Below are positions 8,514 through 35,109 of a stretch of 64,000 nt of DNA, in pieces; positions within the stretch are counted from its first letter, which is position 1; each line of letters opens with the position of its first letter. The DNA comes from a virus (Duplodnaviria > Heunggongvirae > Uroviricota > Caudoviricetes), in IMG/VR virus record IMGVR_UViG_3300024343_000007, positions 1 through 64,000 of that record. One strand, 5' to 3'. The position numbers and the translations under genes are program-made. The notes below the pieces were generated by a model. That model was not told where the DNA came from, did no database searches, and was given only the letters and a program-made list of their open reading frames with translations.

Positions 8514-8669
8514 GTTGTTTTGTATTTAAATACCATCAGTCTTTGTGACTGATGGTATCGTTAGGTTTAATTGAATCATCCTTGTCTTGTTTTGTATCAT
8601 CAGGTGGTGCGTTCATCCATTCTGCAATGATCCATATCCACACTAGTAATACAAAGGTAATAAAATATA

Positions 8670-8918
8670 TCATTTGTCAAAGTTTTTTACCCTGATGAGT
8701 AGCTGATATGTATCAGAGCTGATGTACATATATTTGCGTCCCTTAATATGTAAACGTTTAGATGGTGTAAAATGTGCTTTGGTAGCAAATATAACATCTA
8801 TTAGTTTAGAGCACGCTTTAAGTCCCCTAACATAAGGAGAATCTTGTTGGTTTGGTTCGTAAACCTGGATTGTATGTGTGCAATGTGGTTTTGCACTGTA
8901 GACTAGGCTGTAAGACAT
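8670..8918 (-). CDS. hypothetical protein (82 aa)
   Basis: ORF in the early region. No motif. Confidence 0.4.
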   Translation of the reverse strand: MSYSLVYSAKPHCTHTIQVYEPNQQDSPYVRGLKACSKLIDVIFATKAHFTPSKRLHIKGRKYMYISSDTYQLLIRVKNFDK

Positions 8919-12092: not shown

Positions 12093-12281
12093 TAATTGTT
12101 ATTTAATGCTATATATATTGTATTGTATAGCACAGATTATCAAATGTTGTTTAGACCACTAAAAGGGTCAATAGAACCTACACCATCTCGTTCATTCACA
12201 CAGAATGTATTGAATTTCAGTGAGTTATATAATTATTCCCACCCAAACGTGTCATTACACCCACCCTTATATACGAATAAG

Positions 12282-12316
12282 GGAAAACAAGAGCTTGGAT
12301 GATGTTCCAAGCCCTT
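12282..12316 (-). terminator. Rho-independent terminator on the minus strand, following the 128-aa first early gene
   Basis: Imperfect 11-bp stem CAAGAGCTTGG (12287-12297) / CCAAGCCCTTG (12306-12316), 8-nt loop, followed on the minus strand by TTTTC (complement of 12282-12286). The 128-aa gene stop is at 12330. Confidence 0.45.
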
Positions 12317-12329
12317 GTTAAGTGTGAGA

Positions 12330-12716
12330 TTAAGCCCCTGCCAACTCTTCAAGCTCTGCTTCGCTTGTGATGCCCACAGCAGTGTACTCTTTCTTGATAG
12401 CCTGTGCAACTTCTGCATCTAATGTAGCGTCTATCACGTGAGCGTCAATGTACTCTTGCTTGGTCTTGAACACTGCAGTTGCAGTATCACGAGTCATTGT
12501 TAACTTGCCATCAGCGTAAGGTATTGCATTACCATCTTTGTCAAGTCTTGCACCATAAGTCTTCTTTGCAACTATAGCGAAGAATTGCTTAAAGTCTGCA
12601 TCAACCTTAATGCCCAATGCATCCATCTGACGCTTGTAGATGTGGATTCTTTCGCCTTTAGTGTTGTAACCATTGAAGTTACCATTTGGTGAGAAGTTGC
12701 CTGAATTGATTACCAT
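12330..12716 (-). CDS. hypothetical protein (128 aa), promoter-proximal first gene of the leftward module
   Basis: ORF directly adjacent to the divergent control region and followed by its own terminator. Noticeably GC-richer codon usage in its 3' half than surrounding genes. No motif recognised. Confidence 0.65.
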   Translation of the reverse strand: MVINSGNFSPNGNFNGYNTKGERIHIYKRQMDALGIKVDADFKQFFAIVAKKTYGARLDKDGNAIPYADGKLTMTRDTATAVFKTKQEYIDAHVIDATLDAEVAQAIKKEYTAVGITSEAELEELAGA

Positions 12717-13381
12717 AACGAATTTTACAGTTTTGTAGTGGTGTCTCCACTATAGGTTTGTTAATTGTGAGCCATAGGGGGGCTATGTCAACCCCCTGTT
12801 TTGTGCACGGGGGTGCAATCTGGGTTACCCTCCTCCCCTATACATACAAAGGGGGTAGGGGGGCTATATAAAATTTTGGGCCTAAGCACAGGATAGTTCC
12901 ACAAGGAACGTTGCATGAATTTTTCCAAATTCTTCATGCACATTGTGTCACAATTTTTCAAATATTTGTGACATATTTATATAAATAGGTAACAAGGACT
13001 TCTGGGTTTGGCTGTGTTTTACTTCCTGATTTGGCAAGTTATAACAAGTCTATATTCTGCCAAAAGTCAAGCTATAGCTTTACCCATCTTACGTTTTGTC
13101 AAGCTATAGCTTTACATAATGTGTCTTATAAGGGATATGCTCAGCTTAACAATGTTGCTTTTATGACACATTATGATATGTCTTTACATATAATGATGGA
13201 ATCATCTTACATATTATATGCTTTATGATATAATATCCTGTTGTATCAAAACTAGAAAATCCTGCAAGTTTTGATAATAGGAAAAAATAAATTTGGCTGG
13301 TAAATTTATTTAGCAGTATCTTTGGGGGGGATTTAGGGGGGGCCCTGCTAATTCACCTCTCATTAATAAAAGCTTAGATAT
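12717..13381. promoter_or_regulatory. Divergent non-coding control region between the leftward and rightward modules (candidate early promoters, operators, possible origin)
   Basis: 665 bp without a convincing ORF (only a 65-aa frame). Contains palindromes GCATGAA-n13-TTCATGC (12913-12939) and TGTCACAA-n12-TTGTGACA (12946-12973), two copies of the near-palindrome GTCAAGCTATAGCTTTAC (13066-13083, 13098-13115), the repeated element TAGGGGGGCTAT (12774-12786, 12856-12867), and G7-ATTTA-G7 (13324-13342). Genes diverge from both ends. Confidence 0.5.
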
Positions 13382-13627
13382 ATGGTAGTAGTAAATGTGT
13401 TGTTGGTTATAGTGACGTTACTTAGTATGGCAGTGATTGTATGGGGGTTAGTCTGCTTTGAGGAGTATGAGATAGGTATAGAGTTTCTACCTAAAGACTA
13501 CAATAGTTTTGAACTAGGAGTGTCTAATAGAAACTACAAGTTGGAAGATGAAGGGTTAGAACAGGAGCTTAGGATAGGACTGTTGTTATTCAGTGTTATT
13601 TTCCTGTTTAGGAGATTTGATGCATAA
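13382..13627 (+). CDS. small predicted membrane protein (81 aa)
   Basis: N-terminal hydrophobic helix VVVNVLLVIVTLLSMAVIVWGLVCF and a C-terminal hydrophobic segment. First ORF of the rightward module. Confidence 0.4.
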   Translation: MVVVNVLLVIVTLLSMAVIVWGLVCFEEYEIGIEFLPKDYNSFELGVSNRNYKLEDEGLEQELRIGLLLFSVIFLFRRFDA

Positions 13628-13690
13628 TATAGCATTAACTTTTGCAATAACTAAAATAGTTATTTGTAGATAGGTAAGATATACATACCT

Positions 13691-14065
13691 TTGTATCAAC
13701 TAATTATGGAAACCAAACCTAAATCTCCTATTGTACAACGACTGAAAAGATCAGTGGAGGACAGTTACGTCCTGGCTGAGAAGTATTATAGGATCTTGTC
13801 ATCTGTCAACGACCTTAAGTTGACAAACAGGGAGATACAGCTTATTGCGTTTGCTGCCATGAAGGGTAATATATCCTATGCTAACATACGTAAGGAGTTT
13901 TGTGAGAAGTACGACAGTACATCTCCTGCAATCAATAACATTATTAGTAAGCTGAAGAAGATGGGTGTGTTTGTAAAGGATGGGACAAAGGTGAAGGTCA
14001 ATCCTCTCATCTTGCTCAACTTCGACAAGGATATTATATTGCAAATAAGTCTAATACATGGATAA
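13691..14065 (+). CDS. hypothetical protein (124 aa), possible winged-helix DNA-binding protein
   Basis: ORF preceded by TACCTTTG (a Bacteroidota-type -7 box TAnnTTTG) about 20 nt upstream of the ATG. Sequence LTNREIQLIAFAAMKGNISYANIRKEF is reminiscent of a wHTH recognition region (weak inference). Confidence 0.5.
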   Translation: MYQLIMETKPKSPIVQRLKRSVEDSYVLAEKYYRILSSVNDLKLTNREIQLIAFAAMKGNISYANIRKEFCEKYDSTSPAINNIISKLKKMGVFVKDGTKVKVNPLILLNFDKDIILQISLIHG

Positions 14066-14459
14066 GCCTATAAGCATGTCTGTTAAAGACTTCCTAGTTA
14101 GGACGCTTGCAGTTAAGATGATGATGAATGAAAAGATGATTGAGGCTGTGATAAACCATCAGTTTCAGTCTGCCAATGAGGCAATGGATCTTAACAATAG
14201 TCTAGAGATATCTGGCTTTGGTAAGTTCTATTTCAATGAGAAGAAAGCTATAAAACGACTTGGACAATTGAATGCTAAGAAGCAGGCAATGGAAAGGATA
14301 ATAATAGATGAAACTACATCTGAACAAAAGAAACGTTCATCTAAGGTGACACTAGAAAAAACAGAAGCTCTGATCAATTTGCTAACAACAAAAACTATAT
14401 ATGAAGATCAACTTCTCTCAGATATACGAGGGGTGGAAGAACAACCTCTTTCCAGCTGA
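14058..14459 (+). CDS. HU/IHF-like DNA-binding protein homolog (133 aa)
   Basis: N-terminal helix followed by LEISGFGKFYFNEKKA, matching the conserved HU/IHF beta-arm entry motif (GFGxF). Overall length and layout are HU-like; the C-terminal tail is divergent. Confidence 0.55.
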   Translation: MDKPISMSVKDFLVRTLAVKMMMNEKMIEAVINHQFQSANEAMDLNNSLEISGFGKFYFNEKKAIKRLGQLNAKKQAMERIIIDETTSEQKKRSSKVTLEKTEALINLLTTKTIYEDQLLSDIRGVEEQPLSS

Positions 14460-14748
14460 TGAAATAAAAGAACAGATTAGACAAGTCAGTAAAGAACGTA
14501 TGGCCATTTGTGATCAATGCGAATGGTGTTCTGAGAACAAACCTAAGAAGCCTCGTAGGTTTGATAAGCATTGCACCCATTGTGGATGTGTCCTATCAGC
14601 AAAAACTAAGTGTTTATCTTGTAGCTGTCCCATAGACAAATGGGGACCAGAGATGGAATCTAAGGAAGATGAAGATCAATTAATACAAACAATATATGGA
14701 AAGCAGGGAAGTGAAAATAGAGAGGATTCCACTGGACAGGCTAATTGA
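14401..14748 (+). CDS. Cys-rich zinc-ribbon protein (115 aa from the longest frame; alternative start MAICDQ at about 14502)
   Basis: Cys pairs CDQCEWC...CTHCGC...CLSCSCP (several CxxC). The 5' end overlaps the HU-like gene by 58 nt in another frame, so the real start is uncertain. Confidence 0.45.
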   Translation: MKINFSQIYEGWKNNLFPADEIKEQIRQVSKERMAICDQCEWCSENKPKKPRRFDKHCTHCGCVLSAKTKCLSCSCPIDKWGPEMESKEDEDQLIQTIYGKQGSENREDSTGQAN

Positions 14749-15243: not shown

Positions 15244-15562
15244 AAAAACTACATACGTAAATACAGAGCTTGAATGGGCTGAGTCACAACTCGTTTCATG
15301 GAAAGCTTATGTGAATGCTAACCCACTGCATGAATTGAAAGATAGGATTGAGTGGAAACCTACAGCAAAAGGAGGACTGTTACCTATGGTGATAGCATCT
15401 ATTGAAGCTCAAGGTAAATTTGTCCAAGAGACAATGAAAAACTATCTAGCATTAATAGAGGTGGTAGATAAGCTAAGAAACATGGAAGAAGCTAAGGTGG
15501 AAGTGAGAGGTAAAGGTGAGTTGTCAGGAGCTGCTGCTGAGTTCTTAGCAAATAGAAAATAA
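15230..15562 (+). CDS. hypothetical protein (about 110 aa from MATIKK), candidate small terminase subunit by position
   Basis: Its TAA stop (15560-15562) overlaps the ATG (15562-15564) of the putative TerL, giving TAATG. Size and position immediately upstream of TerL are the only support; there is no sequence motif. Confidence 0.35.
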   Translation: MATIKKTTYVNTELEWAESQLVSWKAYVNANPLHELKDRIEWKPTAKGGLLPMVIASIEAQGKFVQETMKNYLALIEVVDKLRNMEEAKVEVRGKGELSGAAAEFLANRK

Positions 15563-17601
15563 TGGAACTACAAAGTATAGACTACAAAGACTGGTTTATA
15601 AATCAGAAGCGTATTCCTGATAAAGAGTCTCAGGAATGTAAGCCATTCTTTGACTTTCACAGAGAGCTATGCTTAAATGGAGCTATGATGGGAGGAACTT
15701 ATATTAATCCTTTCCTTTACTGGCACCTTAATATATGGCATACAGAAGTAGATATAATAGATAGTTATGGGAGGATTGCACAGAAATATGCCAATCCCCT
15801 ATTGAGAGATAATGAATGGCTTGTGACGAACGAAATTGACAGAGCTCAACAAGAAAAGAGGGGCTTAGTCATTCTAGGTATTAGACGTTTTGCCAAGTCT
15901 GTTCTTGAAGCATCCTATATTGCATGGGGTGCGACCTTTGATGAAAACAGTCAGAATATCATAGCAGGCTTAAATGCCCCAGATATAAAACTGATTACTG
16001 ATAAGATTGACAAAGGATTGAATTTCATTCCTGAGTATTGGAGGTGGCAGAGAATTGAGGACAACTGGAAGAACCAAGTGACTCTAGGTATAAAGACCAA
16101 GTCTGGTGAACGTATCCCATTCTCTTCCATTCTAATACGTAACCTTGATGAAGGTAATAATGAAGAGGCAATTGCAGGTACAAAACCACGTAAATTAATT
16201 ATAGATGAGATTGGTAAAGGAAATTTCCTTCGAGGCTTACAGGCAGCTATTCCTGGTTTCACTACACCCTATGGTTGGGGATGTAGTCCCATTCTTACTG
16301 GTACAGGTGGTGACATGAAGAAATTCATGGATGCCAAAAGCTTAATGTTTGACGTAGACAACTTTAATTTCCTTACATATAATAATGCTAAAGATGACAA
16401 ACGTATACATGGGTTGTTTATCTCCCATAAATATAGAATGGAGGCAAAGGAGGATTCTACACTAGGAGCATACTTAAATGAGTCAGCTAGTTCAGACTTA
16501 CATAATGTTAAAATGCTTGTAAGTAATGAAGATAAGGCTACAGAAATTACTAATAGAGATTTAGAAAGACTTAAGAAAGCTGGTGATCGTATTGCCTATC
16601 TAAAAGAAAAGATGTACTATCCTCAAGAGGTAGATGATATCTTCTTGAACGAGGACACAAATATATTTGATATTGAGAGTGCTAAGAGACAGAAGTCCAG
16701 GTTGTTACAACAAGAAAGAACAGGAACTCCAGTTATATTATTTTCTGGAGAGAATGGTATAGAGCATGAGTTTACAGATAAACTACCTATCTCTAACTTC
16801 CCTCTAAAGAACTCAGACTTAAAAGAAGCACCTGTAGTTATATATGAATTCCCTATAGATAATCCACCTTATGGATTGTATGTAGCAGGAGTCGATCCAT
16901 ATAGACAAGGTAAGTCTGCATATTCAACTTCGCTTGGATCTGTATACATATATAAGAGGATGCATGAAATTAGTGGTGAGAAATATCAAGATATGTTCGT
17001 AGCTTCGTATTGTGCAAGACCTGATAAGAAAGAAACTTGGGAAGAACAAGCTAGACTTCTTATAAAGTATTATAATGCTAGAGCTCTTTGTGAGAATGAT
17101 GATATATCCTTTATTGAATATATGAAAGCTAAAGGAGATGCTCACTTTTTAGAAAGACAACCTGAATGGTTGAAAGAGATTGTTCCTAACACTACAGTTA
17201 AAAGAGATTATGGTATTCATCGTTCAAGTCAGAAGATAATTGACTATCTTCACACTTGTTTAAAGAAGTATATGGAAGCTCCAATCTTTGTGGAAAAGAA
17301 TGAAGCAGGTGAAGTGATTAGAGAAGTGTTAGGTGTGAGTAAGATATTTGATCCTGTATTGCTTGAAGAGATTATTCAATACAATGATCAAGGTAACTTT
17401 GATAGAATCATAGCTGCAGAGTTAGCCATAGCACAAGCTTTGAAGATGGACCCAATTATGGGTAAGATAGGTGGAACAAGTGATGAACGAGTTGCTTCTA
17501 TGTTTAAGAAGAAGAGAGGAAACATACTCTTCACTGACTCTAGAAATAACATGTTTGGACAATCAAAAAATAAATATAAACGAAATAAATTGTTTTCATA
17601 A
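15562..17601 (+). CDS. Terminase large subunit (679 aa)
   Basis: N-terminal ATPase with a deviant Walker A (GIRRFAKS) and Walker B LIIDEIGKGN. C-terminal region has acidic residues in RNase-H-like nuclease positions (VAGVDPYRQ..., ...CENDD). Size and position ahead of a portal-sized gene fit TerL. Confidence 0.7.
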   Translation: MELQSIDYKDWFINQKRIPDKESQECKPFFDFHRELCLNGAMMGGTYINPFLYWHLNIWHTEVDIIDSYGRIAQKYANPLLRDNEWLVTNEIDRAQQEKRGLVILGIRRFAKSVLEASYIAWGATFDENSQNIIAGLNAPDIKLITDKIDKGLNFIPEYWRWQRIEDNWKNQVTLGIKTKSGERIPFSSILIRNLDEGNNEEAIAGTKPRKLIIDEIGKGNFLRGLQAAIPGFTTPYGWGCSPILTGTGGDMKKFMDAKSLMFDVDNFNFLTYNNAKDDKRIHGLFISHKYRMEAKEDSTLGAYLNESASSDLHNVKMLVSNEDKATEITNRDLERLKKAGDRIAYLKEKMYYPQEVDDIFLNEDTNIFDIESAKRQKSRLLQQERTGTPVILFSGENGIEHEFTDKLPISNFPLKNSDLKEAPVVIYEFPIDNPPYGLYVAGVDPYRQGKSAYSTSLGSVYIYKRMHEISGEKYQDMFVASYCARPDKKETWEEQARLLIKYYNARALCENDDISFIEYMKAKGDAHFLERQPEWLKEIVPNTTVKRDYGIHRSSQKIIDYLHTCLKKYMEAPIFVEKNEAGEVIREVLGVSKIFDPVLLEEIIQYNDQGNFDRIIAAELAIAQALKMDPIMGKIGGTSDERVASMFKKKRGNILFTDSRNNMFGQSKNKYKRNKLFS

Positions 17602-22145: not shown

Positions 22146-23699
22146 ATGGCAATTCAAACAATCCCAGGTTTAACTGGTTTTACCTATGCTAGAGTAGCTT
22201 CTATGGACAAGCGTGCAGTAGGTAAATTGACTGACTCAAACCATCTAGAGAGCTTTCACTCAACTGAGCCTGCTGATTATGATAAGAAAATCATCAGCTT
22301 GTATACTCAGAGTTCTCTTTATAGTAATGACTTCTTGGACATGATTAACAAGAGCACACCTTACTATATCGACAATAATAGTGATGCTTGGAAATGGCAG
22401 GTACAAGTACCTTACAAGTTCCCAAAAATCATTGACGTTCCTACTAGCACTTTGGAGTTATCCAAGCCTGGTATCGATGGTCAAGAGTTTCAATTAATCA
22501 TTGACACTAATGAATTTTCTAAGAACGCAATTATCTCTGTAGGTACACGTCAATATGGTCCACGTTTCTACGTAGTAAAAGATCCAGTTCCTTGGAACGT
22601 TGGATACTTATACACTTTCAATTTAGTAAGTGACAACCCAACTGTTGATTTCGTAAGCCCTATCTTCTTGCAAGTGGGTGTGGAATTAGAGTTAGTTGAT
22701 GCTGCTATTGGTGAGTTCGATCAAGACTTATTAGGTCTTCCTCGTTTAGGTGAGCAAATCACAATGTTTGAATCTTTAGGTTCTGCATATGGTTATGAGC
22801 ACAAAATCACTGAGTGGGCTGATGACAAGATGATGAGAGATGCTTCTGGCAAACCTTTAGACATCTTAGTATATGCTCCTCAAAGACGTAACCAATTACC
22901 TTTAACTCGTAATGATGTTAAGTGGGAACCATTTATTGAGTTCTGGATGCGTAAGTCTATGTTAGAATTAAAAGTTAAGCGTATGATCTGGGCTCGTCCT
23001 GGAACTGTGAAGACTAATGGTTCTAAGCAAGAATTAAAGCGTACTTCTGCTGGTGTATATCACAGAATGCGTAACAATGGTAACTTAGTACAATACAATC
23101 GTGGTGAGTTTACAGCTAACTTGATTCGTTCTGTATTTGGTGACTTATTCTACAGACGTGTGGATGTTAAAGACAGACGTGTTAAAATGTACACTAATGA
23201 AGCTGGCTTTGACGTATTCCAACAAGCTTTAAAAACAGATGCTTTGAATTCTGGTCTTACTTTCATGGCTGATTCTGGTAACAGATACATGCAAGGTGAA
23301 GGTCAACATATCACTTACAACTTTGCATTCGATGCAATGGTAACTCGTGAGACTGGTCGTGTTGAATTAATTCACTTGAAAGAATTAGACTTACCTCAAA
23401 CAAACTTAGAATTTGGACAAAACAAGAAGTCAACTCCAGTATTTATGGTGTTTGATGTATCTCCAATGTCTGATGGTTCTATGATCAACAATATTCGTGA
23501 AGTACGTATGAAGGGTGCACCTTCTATGACTTGGGGTTATATCGATGGTACTCGTCACCACTTAGGCTTTGCTAAGTCTCAAGGTATGAGTTCTGCGAAC
23601 AAATTCCCTGGATATGAGATCTGGATGAAAGATCGTTGTGATGTATTTATCGAAGATTTATCTCGTACAGTATTGATTGAAGAAATTCCTCAATTCTAA
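22146..23699 (+). CDS. Putative major capsid protein (517 aa)
   Basis: Size typical of large HK97-fold capsid proteins of crAss-like phages. Follows the scaffold-like gene and is followed by a 190-nt hairpin-rich non-coding spacer. No diagnostic motif. Confidence 0.5.
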   Translation: MAIQTIPGLTGFTYARVASMDKRAVGKLTDSNHLESFHSTEPADYDKKIISLYTQSSLYSNDFLDMINKSTPYYIDNNSDAWKWQVQVPYKFPKIIDVPTSTLELSKPGIDGQEFQLIIDTNEFSKNAIISVGTRQYGPRFYVVKDPVPWNVGYLYTFNLVSDNPTVDFVSPIFLQVGVELELVDAAIGEFDQDLLGLPRLGEQITMFESLGSAYGYEHKITEWADDKMMRDASGKPLDILVYAPQRRNQLPLTRNDVKWEPFIEFWMRKSMLELKVKRMIWARPGTVKTNGSKQELKRTSAGVYHRMRNNGNLVQYNRGEFTANLIRSVFGDLFYRRVDVKDRRVKMYTNEAGFDVFQQALKTDALNSGLTFMADSGNRYMQGEGQHITYNFAFDAMVTRETGRVELIHLKELDLPQTNLEFGQNKKSTPVFMVFDVSPMSDGSMINNIREVRMKGAPSMTWGYIDGTRHHLGFAKSQGMSSANKFPGYEIWMKDRCDVFIEDLSRTVLIEEIPQF

Positions 23700-23761: not shown

Positions 23762-23855
23762 GAAGACCTTCCCCCCACATCCCAGTGGGGGAGTCTTCTA
23801 ACACAGATGGACATGTACAGGCTCCATGCCTTACAGTGTTCCCTTCGATGGGAAC
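23762..23855 (+). other. Structured intergenic RNA element / possible terminator or processing site downstream of the putative capsid gene
   Basis: Long imperfect hairpin GAAGAC...CCCCAC-ATCCCA-GTGGGG...GTCTTC (23762-23798) and a second hairpin GTTCCC-TTCGAT-GGGAAC (23838-23855). No T-run follows, so this is not a canonical intrinsic terminator. Confidence 0.35.
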
Positions 23856-33689: not shown

Positions 33690-33745
33690 ATCCTGTTTAT
33701 TGGTTTACAGGATATCCCCTGGCCTTTCAAGGCTGGGGGTTTTTG
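33690..33745 (+). terminator. Tandem hairpins plus T-run: Rho-independent terminator
   Basis: Hairpin ATCCTGT (33690-33696) / ACAGGAT (33707-33713), then CCCCTGGCC (33716-33724) / GGCTGGGGG (33731-33739) (9 bp including 2 G-U pairs, loop TTTCAA), followed by TTTTT (33740-33744). Confidence 0.6.
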
Positions 33746-33858
33746 TTTAAACTCTAACTAAAAAAGTTATTCTATATAACCAAAATAGTTAGGTTATTTT
33801 TGGGAATTTCAGAAATAGTTCCTATCTTTACAATAATTTTAACCAAAATAAACTATAT

Positions 33859-35109
33859 ATGCCTGACTATCAAGCATTGCTGAACCAGCTAGAAGAGATT
33901 TTGCACTGGAAAAAGAGTAAAAAATTCTACGCTGATAAGCTTGGAATTGCAGAATCAGACGTTGATGAGTTATTAAAAGAGTTGAGAACTAGAGAAAGTA
34001 TTATACAAGAAGCAGAATTAGGTAACTACATTTCTGAGTTAGAGGAAACAATAGTAAGATTTGAAGAAGACATTCTTAAAGGAACTGGAGAGATTGTCAT
34101 CAATACAAAGGATGAAATCAAGAGCTTAGATGAGCTCATAGTAAAGTGTAAGATTGACACAGATAAATGGGAAATCACCAAATACGTACAGAACTACTGG
34201 GGAAATGGAGAAACACCCCATTGGCAAGTCAAAGCATGGTTAGGGAAGAAGTCTACAGAACAAGTTTTTCAAGATGCGTTTGTAGACTTTTTAGATTCAT
34301 ATAAGCCTGTGTCTCAAGAAGTTATGAGTCCTAAGTGGGAAGGAAATAAGTTTCCTGCTATGTTAATCATTAACAAACAGGATTCTCATTTAAACAAATA
34401 TGACATTGATGGCAATAATAATATTACTGACAGACTAGCTAATATTATGTACAAGGTAGAGGTGATTGCTAATCAAGCAACACTTTCAAATAACTTAGAT
34501 CAAATTACATATATCCTTGGTTCTGATGAGTTTAACAGTGAGTTTACAGGAATGACCACAAAGGGTACTCCTCAAACAAACACTCATACATATCAAACAT
34601 CTTTTGAATATATCTGTGGACACGAGGTGTTGATGATTACAATGTTATTACAATATGCTGAGAATGTAAATGTTGTGTATGTAGCAGGTAATCATGATGA
34701 GTTTGTAGGATGGCATATGGTTAATTGGTTACAAACTTACTTTAGAAATACAGAGAGATTAACATTTGATTGTTCTCCTAAGTATAGAAAGTATGTAAGT
34801 TATGGTGGTTCAGCATTGATGTTTAATCATGGAGATGCAATTAAGCCTGCAAAGCTTGCTGCATTGTTTCCAATAGAATATAGAGAAGGATGGTCTTTCC
34901 ATAATAACTTCTATATCTTCACAGGAGATAAACATCATGAAGTGAGTCATGATTTCAATGGTATTAAGTTTTACCAAATTCCAGCATTCTCTAATGCTAA
35001 GAGTCTTTGGGATGATAAGAATGGTCACACTATGTCCAAAGCAGAAGTGACAGGGTTCTTGATAGAACAAGGCTCAGGAATGACAAATATATTCAAACAG
35101 TATTTATAA
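33859..35109 (+). CDS. Calcineurin-like metallophosphoesterase-domain protein (416 aa) with N-terminal coiled-coil region
   Basis: C-terminal half contains VYVAGNHDE (GNHD/E motif), FNHGDA and IFTGDKHHE (GD/H-containing metal-ligand motifs) in the order expected for a metallophosphatase. Preceded by TATTTTTG (-7 box) and the conserved AACCAAAATAAACTATATATG start context. Confidence 0.45.
   Translation: MPDYQALLNQLEEILHWKKSKKFYADKLGIAESDVDELLKELRTRESIIQEAELGNYISELEETIVRFEEDILKGTGEIVINTKDEIKSLDELIVKCKIDTDKWEITKYVQNYWGNGETPHWQVKAWLGKKSTEQVFQDAFVDFLDSYKPVSQEVMSPKWEGNKFPAMLIINKQDSHLNKYDIDGNNNITDRLANIMYKVEVIANQATLSNNLDQITYILGSDEFNSEFTGMTTKGTPQTNTHTYQTSFEYICGHEVLMITMLLQYAENVNVVYVAGNHDEFVGWHMVNWLQTYFRNTERLTFDCSPKYRKYVSYGGSALMFNHGDAIKPAKLAALFPIEYREGWSFHNNFYIFTGDKHHEVSHDFNGIKFYQIPAFSNAKSLWDDKNGHTMSKAEVTGFLIEQGSGMTNIFKQYL

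Follow-up and report, generated by a model that had tools for sequence, protein, structure and literature searches.

The crAss-like phages belong to the most abundant phages described so far. To our knowledge, it has yet to be established how the injected giant polymerase switches on their early genes, where replication starts, and how the structural genes are timed. According to the original description in Bacteroides fragilis, sigma-A promoters reportedly carry a -33 box TTTG and a -7 box TAnnTTTG. Divergent phage control regions with host promoters and operators are an already known kind of locus. In phage phi14:2, early genes are transcribed by a virion-packaged RNA polymerase with a DFDxD motif, and middle and late genes are read from promoters of the host RNA polymerase (10.1101/2020.03.07.982082). 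In the prototypic crAssphage, the replication origin was predicted where both gene orientation and GC skew change (PMC10983915). Here, we describe a non-coding interval of 665 nt (positions 12717-13381) in the first 64,000 nt of the IMG/VR virus record IMGVR_UViG_3300024343_000007, a stretch referred to below as the window. The interval is probably a transcription-control region with two rightward host-type sigma-A promoters (P2 and P3), operator-like sites, and an element of G and C tracts, designated LE, that serves the leftward unit.

Judged by its protein matches, the window is part of the genome of a freshwater crAss-like phage: the TerL and portal proteins match crAss-type families, and a 4306-aa open reading frame (ORF) far to the right contains DFDID, the motif of crAss-type virion RNA polymerases. 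The host is probably a member of the Bacteroidota; relatives of the TerL protein occur in metagenome-assembled genome (MAG) bins of Sediminibacterium, Cytophagales, and Bacteroidota. Among cultured phages, no DNA match was found by megablast or blastn, and the nearest cultured TerL proteins were those of Leptolyngbya phage Lbo-JY46 (39% identity) and Cellulophaga phi4:1 (31%). Upstream of the nearest cultured TerL relatives, the layout was different or LE was absent; in Lbo-JY46, a tRNA array is located upstream of the homologous block. The relation to the prototypic crAssphage is distant, with a TerL identity of about 25–28% to gut crAss-like phages.

Like phi14:2, which has long non-coding regions beside its early genes, the window has such a region, together with a giant DFDID protein and host-type promoters. 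The control-region reading fits the phi14:2 programme because a virion polymerase reads the early genes there and the host polymerase reads the later ones. However, the two phages have no sequence similarity, and the first 9 kb of phi14:2 contain neither a match to the LE profile nor a cluster of G runs. The interval has the same position as the predicted crAssphage origin, namely the point where gene orientation and GC skew both turn. The intergenic regions of phi14:2 are 1.7 kb long and known to be transcribed, and the crAssphage prediction rests on OriFinder, RepL genes, and coverage (PMC10983915), whereas no RepL-like gene was found here.

Related loci and sequence comparisons

Out of 512 TerL relatives, 80 related loci with a TerL identity of 83–98% were taken from IMG/VR. 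Ten MAG-derived loci were added, five of them with Bacteroidota labels (two Sediminibacterium, two Cytophagales, and one Bacteroidota), and one of these five was a 112-kb contig. In all, the comparison of the region drew on about 85 loci. The census of modules covered 38 distinct architectures, and that of promoter P2 covered 37 distinct copies. LE was searched for in the IMG/VR and MAG loci by nhmmer with a profile built from LE, and its folding was compared with that of shuffled partners for 54 distinct sequences under two explicit models, nested and tandem. The window was scanned for promoters with the pattern TTTG-N17-22-TAnnTTTG against shuffled sequences. Perfect 7-nt inverted-repeat seeds were counted in segments of 665 nt, with 1000 Markov-1 simulations as the null.

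A conserved non-coding region between two gene blocks

A sequence-only reading of the window had described the interval as its largest non-coding stretch, located at the switch between leftward and rightward modules. Both statements were borne out. The ORF-free gap comprises 665 nt, and the next internal gap is 201 nt long. On the left, about 4 kb of small unannotated genes on the other strand are followed by genes of the DNA polymerase and helicases. On the right, the gene of a small hydrophobic protein (p81) is followed by a 119-aa winged-helix gene (p119, 13706-14065, ATG at 13706) and by the genes of an HU/IHF-like protein (14058-14459), a Zn-ribbon protein (14401-14748), TerL (15562-17601), the portal, and the major head protein. 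The interval was kept as non-coding DNA in every related locus extending there. Two small ORFs within the gap (12788-12961, minus strand, and 13031-13228, plus strand) were rejected, as indels in the relatives break their frames. We consider it rather likely that the interval acts as a conserved switchboard between the leftward early and replication genes and the rightward packaging and structural genes.

The five groups of motifs listed in the sequence-only reading were all located to within one base by direct reading, and most of them were also recovered by repeat search. Thus, GCATGAA (12913-12919) and TTCATGC (12933-12939) are separated by 13 nt, ATTGTGTCACAAT occupies positions 12942-12954, TGTCACAA-n12-TTGTGACA occupies positions 12946-12973, and GTCAAGCTATAGCTTTAC is present in two exact copies 32 bp apart (13066-13083 and 13098-13115). 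The G-rich block consists of G7 (13324-13330), ATTTA, G7 (13336-13342), and CCC (13343-13345). The repeat TAGGGGGGCTAT was found at 12775-12786 and 12856-12867 with a C5 run at 12792-12796, so that the start at 12774 given before was off by one. This pair is weak evidence alone and the weakest item of the list, because matches with up to two mismatches were no more numerous than in shuffled sequences. The palindrome GTTCCACAAGGAAC, the repeat ACTTCYnGnTTTGGC, and the promoter context of the G7 tracts had been missed.

The stacking of palindromes and the unusual G runs, both noted in that reading, were confirmed statistically. The interval contains 14 perfect inverted-repeat seeds versus 1.27 ± 1.45 expected; none of the 1000 simulations reached this number, which is also the maximum among all segments of equal length in the window (median 1). 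Seven of the 12 runs of at least five G and all four runs of at least six in the 64 kb fall within 12777-13447. The segment 12230-13350, 1.75% of the window, contains six of its ten GGG[N]GGG words, and the two top G4Hunter scores of the window were obtained at 13318 (2.2) and 12848 (1.72). In addition, the cumulative GC skew reaches its minimum in the region of the interval, at 12–13 kb.

As for the recurrence of these repeats, the main elements are present in related genomes, and several palindromes are optional and absent from many relatives. Within the 64 kb, GTCAAGCTATAGCTTTAC has no further copy and the GCATGAA repeat is unique, whereas the palindrome of P3, located outside the interval, recurs twice with mismatches.

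Rightward host-type promoters P2 and P3

We propose that the packaging and structural block would be transcribed rightward from two host sigma-A promoters, P2 and P3 (Table 1). Nine perfect matches to the promoter pattern were found in the 64 kb versus 2.9 in shuffled sequences, and three of the nine lie on the plus strand within 12732-13693. Both boxes of the Bacteroidota consensus are matched perfectly by P2 (TTTG and TATCTTTG with a 21-nt spacer) and by P3 (TTTG and TACCTTTG with a 19-nt spacer); both promoters are located upstream of genes and conserved in relatives. P2, which reads AAAAATAAATTTGG-N-TATCTTTG, was present in 36 of the 38 architectures, and its two boxes were nearly invariant both in the alignment and in the census of its copies. 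The two promoters were kept base for base at loci with differing flanking ORFs, and P2 persisted even in those relatives without p81 or any other ORF ahead of P3. The match P1 (12732-12760, plus strand; TTTG-N17-TAGGTTTG) is also perfect and overlaps the leader of the first leftward gene, p128, yet it was rejected as not conserved.

The p81 gene is conserved in many relatives, replaced by another small hydrophobic ORF in some loci (L054, L060), and absent from L019-L029. On the minus strand, a perfect host-type promoter TTTG-N18-TACCTTTG was found at 8652-8681, in a 156-nt gap (8514-8669). It may mark the start of host-dependent leftward transcription, or the border that separates the small leftward genes from those of replication.

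P2 has the anatomy of a canonical host sigma-A promoter facing right, with a predicted start inside the first G7. The final G of its -7 box (13324) is at the same time the first G of this tract. Because the flavobacterial -7 box spans -12 to -5 (Flavobacterium psychrophilum, PMC9723704), the start of P2 is predicted near 13329, and G7-ATTTA-G7 would therefore span -5 to +14. With a start inside the first G7, the block would form the discriminator and the first ~15 transcribed bases. The G7 tracts are thus better described as the discriminator and the initially transcribed part of a rightward host-type promoter than as free-standing elements.

The census supports the register of this block. In all 37 distinct copies of P2, a G-rich block abuts the -7 box without a gap; it has the form G7-N5-G7 in 12 copies and GGGTGGAGGGTGGGG, GGGGTGGTTGGGTGGG, or a similar form in the other 25. 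Thus, the conserved trait is G-richness in the register of the promoter and not the homopolymer itself. The strict G-quadruplex motif, (G3+N1-7)x3 G3+, is matched in the window and in 12 of the 37 copies by splitting each G7, and the other 25 copies have one GG tract or a longer loop in the motif. The candidate quadruplex DNA sequences at the start of P2 are GGGGGGGATTTAGGGGGGG and GGGTGGAGGGTGGGG. Such a start may stabilise the open complex in the manner of a GGG-type discriminator, or it may form a G-quadruplex of the non-template strand or an R-loop. Compared with the Bacteroidota sigma-A promoters, P2 adds a G-rich block of 15–19 nt in register, and P3 adds a 17-bp palindrome next to its -33 box. 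We know of no G-rich block in the described Bacteroidota sigma-A consensus. The lengths of homopolymers vary among relatives (C9 after LE in L035 and L047, G8 in L012 and L021); long tracts are prone to slippage, and expression could therefore vary within populations.

P3 is located just to the right of the interval, 13 nt ahead of the ATG of the winged-helix gene, and its start is predicted near 13698. It is nearly invariant among relatives, as are the upstream GCATAATATAGCATT and the palindrome ATAACTAAAATAGTTAT, which abuts the -33 box. Palindromes of the same type recur at 33754 (CTAACTAAAAAAGTTAT) and 33776 (ATAACCAAAATAGTTAG), with two mismatches each, where they precede a near-consensus promoter TTTG-N20-TATCTTTA of the gene at 33859. 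An intrinsic-terminator-like hairpin, CCCCTGGCC..GGCTGGGGG followed by T5, is located ahead of these copies at 33716-33748. Recurrence of the palindrome before the promoter of this gene suggests that the P3-type palindromes are an operator shared by structural-gene promoters and bound by a common regulator.

The LE element and the first leftward gene

The consensus of LE consists, in order, of a G run, a C run followed by AAC, GGGGT, GGAGTAGnCTC, CTCCCAT, a third run of G or C, and AAAATTTT. The profile matched 67 of the 80 loci from IMG/VR and five from MAGs, always with a single copy per locus in the orientation of TerL, and LE was present in all 55 loci long enough to include its position. 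In 17 further contigs, one copy each was recognised by a degenerate pattern of the LE core. The GC content of LE is 53% versus 35% for the genome. In every case, 22–67 nt separate LE from the first leftward ATG, and in a dozen minimal relatives it is only 14–72 nt from P2. LE and P2 thus form the core of the region, and the 406-nt middle section of the window can be regarded as a set of add-on modules.

The first leftward gene (p128 in the window, 12330-12716, minus strand) always encodes 126–168 aa. Its products fall into three clusters that are unconnected by BLAST and gave no match in Pfam, PHROG, or PDB; the pattern resembles that of an early gene that evolves fast or has been replaced repeatedly while its position stayed fixed. 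The hairpin in the p128 leader shows stem variants among the loci (GTGG/CCAC, GTGC/GCAC, GAG/CTC, GGTG/CACC, and CGTG/CACG). RNAalifold predicted no pairs in this hairpin because its stem is short. Behind p128 (12232-12300, minus strand), a terminator-like hairpin is followed by TATATAAGGGTGGG-N14-TTTGGGTGGG, which holds two G-box words; among 41 distinct architectures, 7 had this motif about 485–560 nt to the left of LE. The succession of TTTG and GGGTGG occurs in the 64 kb solely behind p128 and at P2.

No leftward promoter of the host type or the sigma-70 type was conserved in or near LE. The candidate TTGACA-16-CACAAT at 12791-12764 was rejected, being confined to the subgroup of the window, and the sigma-70 scan remained at the level of chance (6 matches versus 4.3 expected). 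LE abuts the first leftward gene where no host-type promoter exists, and we therefore take it as the putative promoter of the leftward early unit together with its upstream region. It would most likely work as double-stranded DNA built of G-box words (GGGNGGG in either orientation) and not as a folded RNA.

The question of a folded RNA is raised by phi14:2, which makes abundant RNAs from long intergenic regions beside its early genes (10.1101/2020.03.07.982082). If LE or the middle part of the interval encoded a structured non-coding RNA of this kind, it would be in line with a non-coding sequence that is better conserved than the neighbouring ORFs and with many possible G:C helices (minimum free energy of -45.3 kcal/mol). 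However, the folding energies were no better than those of dinucleotide shuffles on either strand (z-scores of -0.7 and -1.2). Under the two models of LE, 74.6% and 75.6% of the cells were paired versus 74.3% and 74.9% in shuffled sequences, and the covariation scores of both models were not above those of the shuffles. MAFFT alignments submitted to RNAalifold yielded next to nothing, no consensus pair exceeded 0.25 when pair probabilities were averaged, and mutual information revealed no Watson-Crick pairs. The search against Rfam returned no match at the gathering score in the whole window and, at E ≤ 5, only two chance miRNA matches (E > 1) in 12600-13800. ARAGORN detected neither tRNA nor tmRNA, and the LE profile had no match in the phi14:2 region. 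Moreover, there is no conserved plus-strand promoter upstream of LE. At the third tract, 26 sequences carry a G run and 10 a C run, and the switch is accompanied by no change of the partner and no compensation elsewhere. Since real pairing equals that of shuffled sequences, the complementarity within LE reflects merely the presence of G runs and C runs; together with the exchange of G for C in the third tract, this points to recognition of LE as double-stranded DNA. A structured RNA is thus very improbable.

Another explanation concerns the enzyme that would use LE. Phage N4 has hairpin promoters for its virion RNA polymerase, a T7-like enzyme, with a stem of 5–7 bp and a 3-nt loop. In many relatives, the gene-proximal end of LE similarly carries a short hairpin (a G:C stem of 4–5 bp and a loop of 3–4 nt) near presumed early genes, and the crAss-type enzyme of phi14:2 prefers single-stranded DNA. 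LE, alone or with the G-boxes, might be used by the two-barrel virion RNA polymerase (the DFDID protein) as its promoter or entry site for transcribing the first early unit, a possibility that we regard as somewhat unlikely. On this account, which carries the same low likelihood, inverted repeats rich in GC within AT-rich surroundings would be extruded or melted and provide the single-stranded template favoured by the enzyme. The universal presence of LE, its position against the first leftward gene, and the lack of a leftward host-type promoter there, though such promoters exist at P2, P3, and 8681-8652 (minus strand), agree with this explanation. The same holds for the phi14:2 virion polymerase, which transcribes the early genes and strongly prefers single-stranded DNA, but the early transcripts of that phage have no common upstream motif (10.1101/2020.03.07.982082). 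Further points against it are the single copy of LE in 64 kb, pairing no better than in shuffles, and the fact that the early status of the small leftward genes is deduced from their size, variability, and position. The N4-type hairpin was not found in the window, where the G6/C5 pair has a 10-nt loop, and the two-barrel enzyme is unrelated to the T7-like polymerase of N4. A mechanism similar to that of N4 is nevertheless conceivable.

Accessory palindromes and a candidate regulator

Between LE and P2, the interval carries several palindromes and repeats that come and go as modules between relatives (Table 1). We propose that the 18-bp pair (DR18), the palindrome O1, and the other palindromes would bind dimeric regulators tuning P2, the leftward promoter, or both. 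The suggestion that the 18-bp pair is an operator of a dimeric regulator was supported by the relatives, where the consensus TGTMAAG-N6-CTTKACA and the spacing of 32–33 bp are kept and at least one copy is present in 35 of the 38 architectures. In the window, no third copy was found with up to three mismatches (0.09 expected by chance). The outer half-sites TGTMAAG and CTTKACA are conserved and the inner CTATAG varies, which is the pattern expected of a site for a dimeric helix-turn-helix protein. One relative has a single copy of DR18 located 9 nt from the -33 box of P2, and two others (L008 and L010) have three repeats, versus two in the window.

The product of the neighbouring 119-aa gene, described as wHTH-like in the sequence-only reading, indeed models as a winged helix. 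The protein is highly conserved among the relatives and has about 1500 metagenomic relatives, some of them labelled as MarR-type by the Joint Genome Institute (JGI). Its AlphaFold2 (AF2) model computed with an alignment (predicted local distance difference test, pLDDT, of 75.8) has the H-H-H-beta hairpin topology of winged helices, and the single-sequence model (pLDDT 44.8) was discarded as unusable. The best Foldseek matches were ST1710, OhrR, MarR, the DNA-binding domain of NtcA, and T4 MotA, with probabilities up to 1.0. Profile searches in Pfam, PHROGs, NCBIfam, and PDB all remained below threshold. On the basis of this model, p119 is a reasonable candidate for binding DR18, O1, and the other palindromes.

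Table 1. Positions of the elements discussed in the text, given in coordinates of the window.
Feature	Position	Strand	Description
p128 leader with hairpin TAGTGG-TGTCT-CCACTA (12739-12755)	12717..12769	-	Compensatory stem changes
LE, ~105-nt G/C-tract element	12770..12879	+	G6 12777-12782, C5 12792-12796, G5 12809-12813, G5 12851-12855, G6 12858-12863
LE, further parts	12826-12839, 12870-12877	+	GG..TTA..CC / pyrimidine tract CCCTCCTCCCC; AAAATTTT
O1 palindrome GTTCCACAAGGAAC, consensus GTTCCACGTGGAAC	12896..12909		Between LE and P2; 29/38 architectures
Inverted repeat GCATGAA-N13-TTCATGC, optional module	12913..12939		17/38 architectures; unique in the window
Palindromes ATTGTGTCACAAT / TGTCACAA-N12-TTGTGACA (TGTCACA), optional module	12942..12973		12/38 architectures
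Direct repeat ACTTCYnGnTTTGGC, two copies	12998-13012, 13021-13035	+	23/38 architectures
DR18 pair, 18-bp near-palindromes	13065..13116 (13066-13083, 13098-13115)		At least one copy in 35/38; pair at 32–33 bp in ~30/38
Long inverted repeat CATAATGTGTCTTATAAG / CTTTTATGACACATTATG	13115..13175		Left arm (starting ACATAATGTGTC) in 28/38; left end of the 26% GC stretch 13116-13291
Inverted repeat TATCAAAACT-N13-AGTTTTGATA, optional module	13244..13276		10/38 architectures
P2, promoter of the Bacteroidota sigma-A type (predicted)	13283..13324	+	A-tract AAAAATAAA, -33 TTTG 13292-13295, 21-nt spacer, -7 TATCTTTG 13317-13324
G7-ATTTA-G7-CCC, putative G-rich discriminator and initially transcribed region of P2	13324..13345	+	Census; top G4Hunter score
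p81, small hydrophobic protein	13382..13627	+	First rightward ORF, between P2 and P3
P3, second host-type promoter (predicted)	13622..13693	+	GCATAATATAGCATT, palindrome ATAACTAAAATAGTTAT (13647-13663), -33 TTTG 13663-13666, -7 TACCTTTG 13686-13693

Beyond these features, a C6...G5 hairpin at 23771-23791, in the 190-nt gap behind the major head protein gene (22146-23699), is probably a terminator.

A replication origin as an alternative

Lambdoid origins carry iterons, and priming through an R-loop or G-quadruplex is known from ColE1 RNA II and mitochondrial CSBII (G6AG8). The window resembles these systems in having near-palindromic repeats that adjoin AT-rich DNA, and a promoter from which transcription would enter CSBII-like G runs. 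The interval might therefore be a replication origin in which the DR18 copies are iterons, the 26% GC stretch is the unwinding element, and a stable R-loop or G-quadruplex, formed as P2 transcribes through its G-rich non-template strand, activates or primes rightward synthesis, comparable to the activation of lambda ori. The cumulative GC-skew minimum at 12–13 kb, the conservation of the DR18 pair with a fixed spacing, and the low GC content of 13116-13291 are consistent with such a role. It also agrees with the top G4Hunter score of the window, with the universal presence of P2 and its G-rich block even where no ORF precedes P3, and with the origin that was predicted for the prototypic crAssphage where its two gene blocks meet (PMC10983915).

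However, the switch of the GC skew coincides with the switch of gene orientation and so gives no independent evidence. Iteron origins have at least three direct repeats and an AT-rich element, whereas the window has two repeats at a spacing of 32–33 bp followed by the 26% GC stretch; unlike the iterons of lambdoid origins, both repeats are dispensable, since they and the AT-rich stretch are missing from the minimal relatives in which LE and P2 are retained. The window yielded no initiator gene, the ORC1-type match of p119 being non-significant (E 0.023). An RNA starting from ~13329 has too few G tracts for an RNA quadruplex, and 25 of the 37 relatives, with one GG tract, fail the strict G3 motif. 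An origin is thus a real yet weaker alternative, unlikely in our estimate and compatible with a control region at the same place.

Several points weigh against the interpretation of the interval as a transcription-control region. This interpretation rests on sequence, and the starts, binding, and timing of expression are predicted. The same anatomy (repeats, 26% GC stretch, promoter, and GC-skew minimum) fits an origin, and the skew is confounded by the change of gene orientation. No leftward promoter motif was identified, so that the role of LE is assigned by its position; the fold matches of p119 are weak (E 0.01–0.08). In addition, the promoter consensus was learnt in Bacteroides and Flavobacterium, and the host here is assigned via MAG binning.

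Contig ends in the region

In many phages, packaging sites lie just upstream of the terminase block, and the region could accordingly hold the physical ends of the genome or a packaging site (cos, pac, or a direct terminal repeat). Of the 80 IMG/VR contigs, about 40 terminate in the few kb preceding the winged-helix gene, many of them inside the region, and the HU/IHF-like gene adjoins it; in crAss001, early genes are located at one end of a linear genome (PMC8375218). However, the contig ends were scattered and shared no single homologous position, and two contigs of more than 100 kb starting here had no terminal repeat. A contig of 113,936 bp closes on itself save for 53 nt, which are exactly P2 up to the first G7, and in many contigs of 102–117 kb, the region is crossed without interruption and lies at an arbitrary internal position. 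Genome ends or a packaging site at this place are therefore highly unlikely, and the cluster of contig ends is best explained by assemblies breaking at the G tracts and in a mosaic region that varies between strains. Contigs that break at or beside G runs include L023 / L111 (IMGVR_UViG_3300046804_001058), L010, L006, and L039. In practice, the G7 tracts are a warning that metagenomic assemblies of these phages break at this spot.

Implications for crAss-like phages

As a divergent region with host promoters and operators, the interval belongs to a familiar type of locus. What appears to be new, as far as the compared loci indicate, are two features conserved across a large uncultured clade, the universal G/C-tract element LE and the G-rich start of P2 in its fixed register. 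The core of the region in this clade is compact (~250 bp) and strongly conserved, and it unites LE with a host promoter having a fixed G-rich start. A more speculative view, to which we assign a low probability, is that LE and the G-box words (GGGNGGG in either orientation, 12230-13350) form a platform on which the crAss-type virion RNA polymerase recognises or melts the DNA for the first early unit. The same system could also include the G-rich beginning of P2, for example for the hand-over from the virion to the host polymerase or for R-loop priming of replication. If LE is indeed such a platform, it would represent the first sequence-defined early promoter architecture for this class of enzymes.

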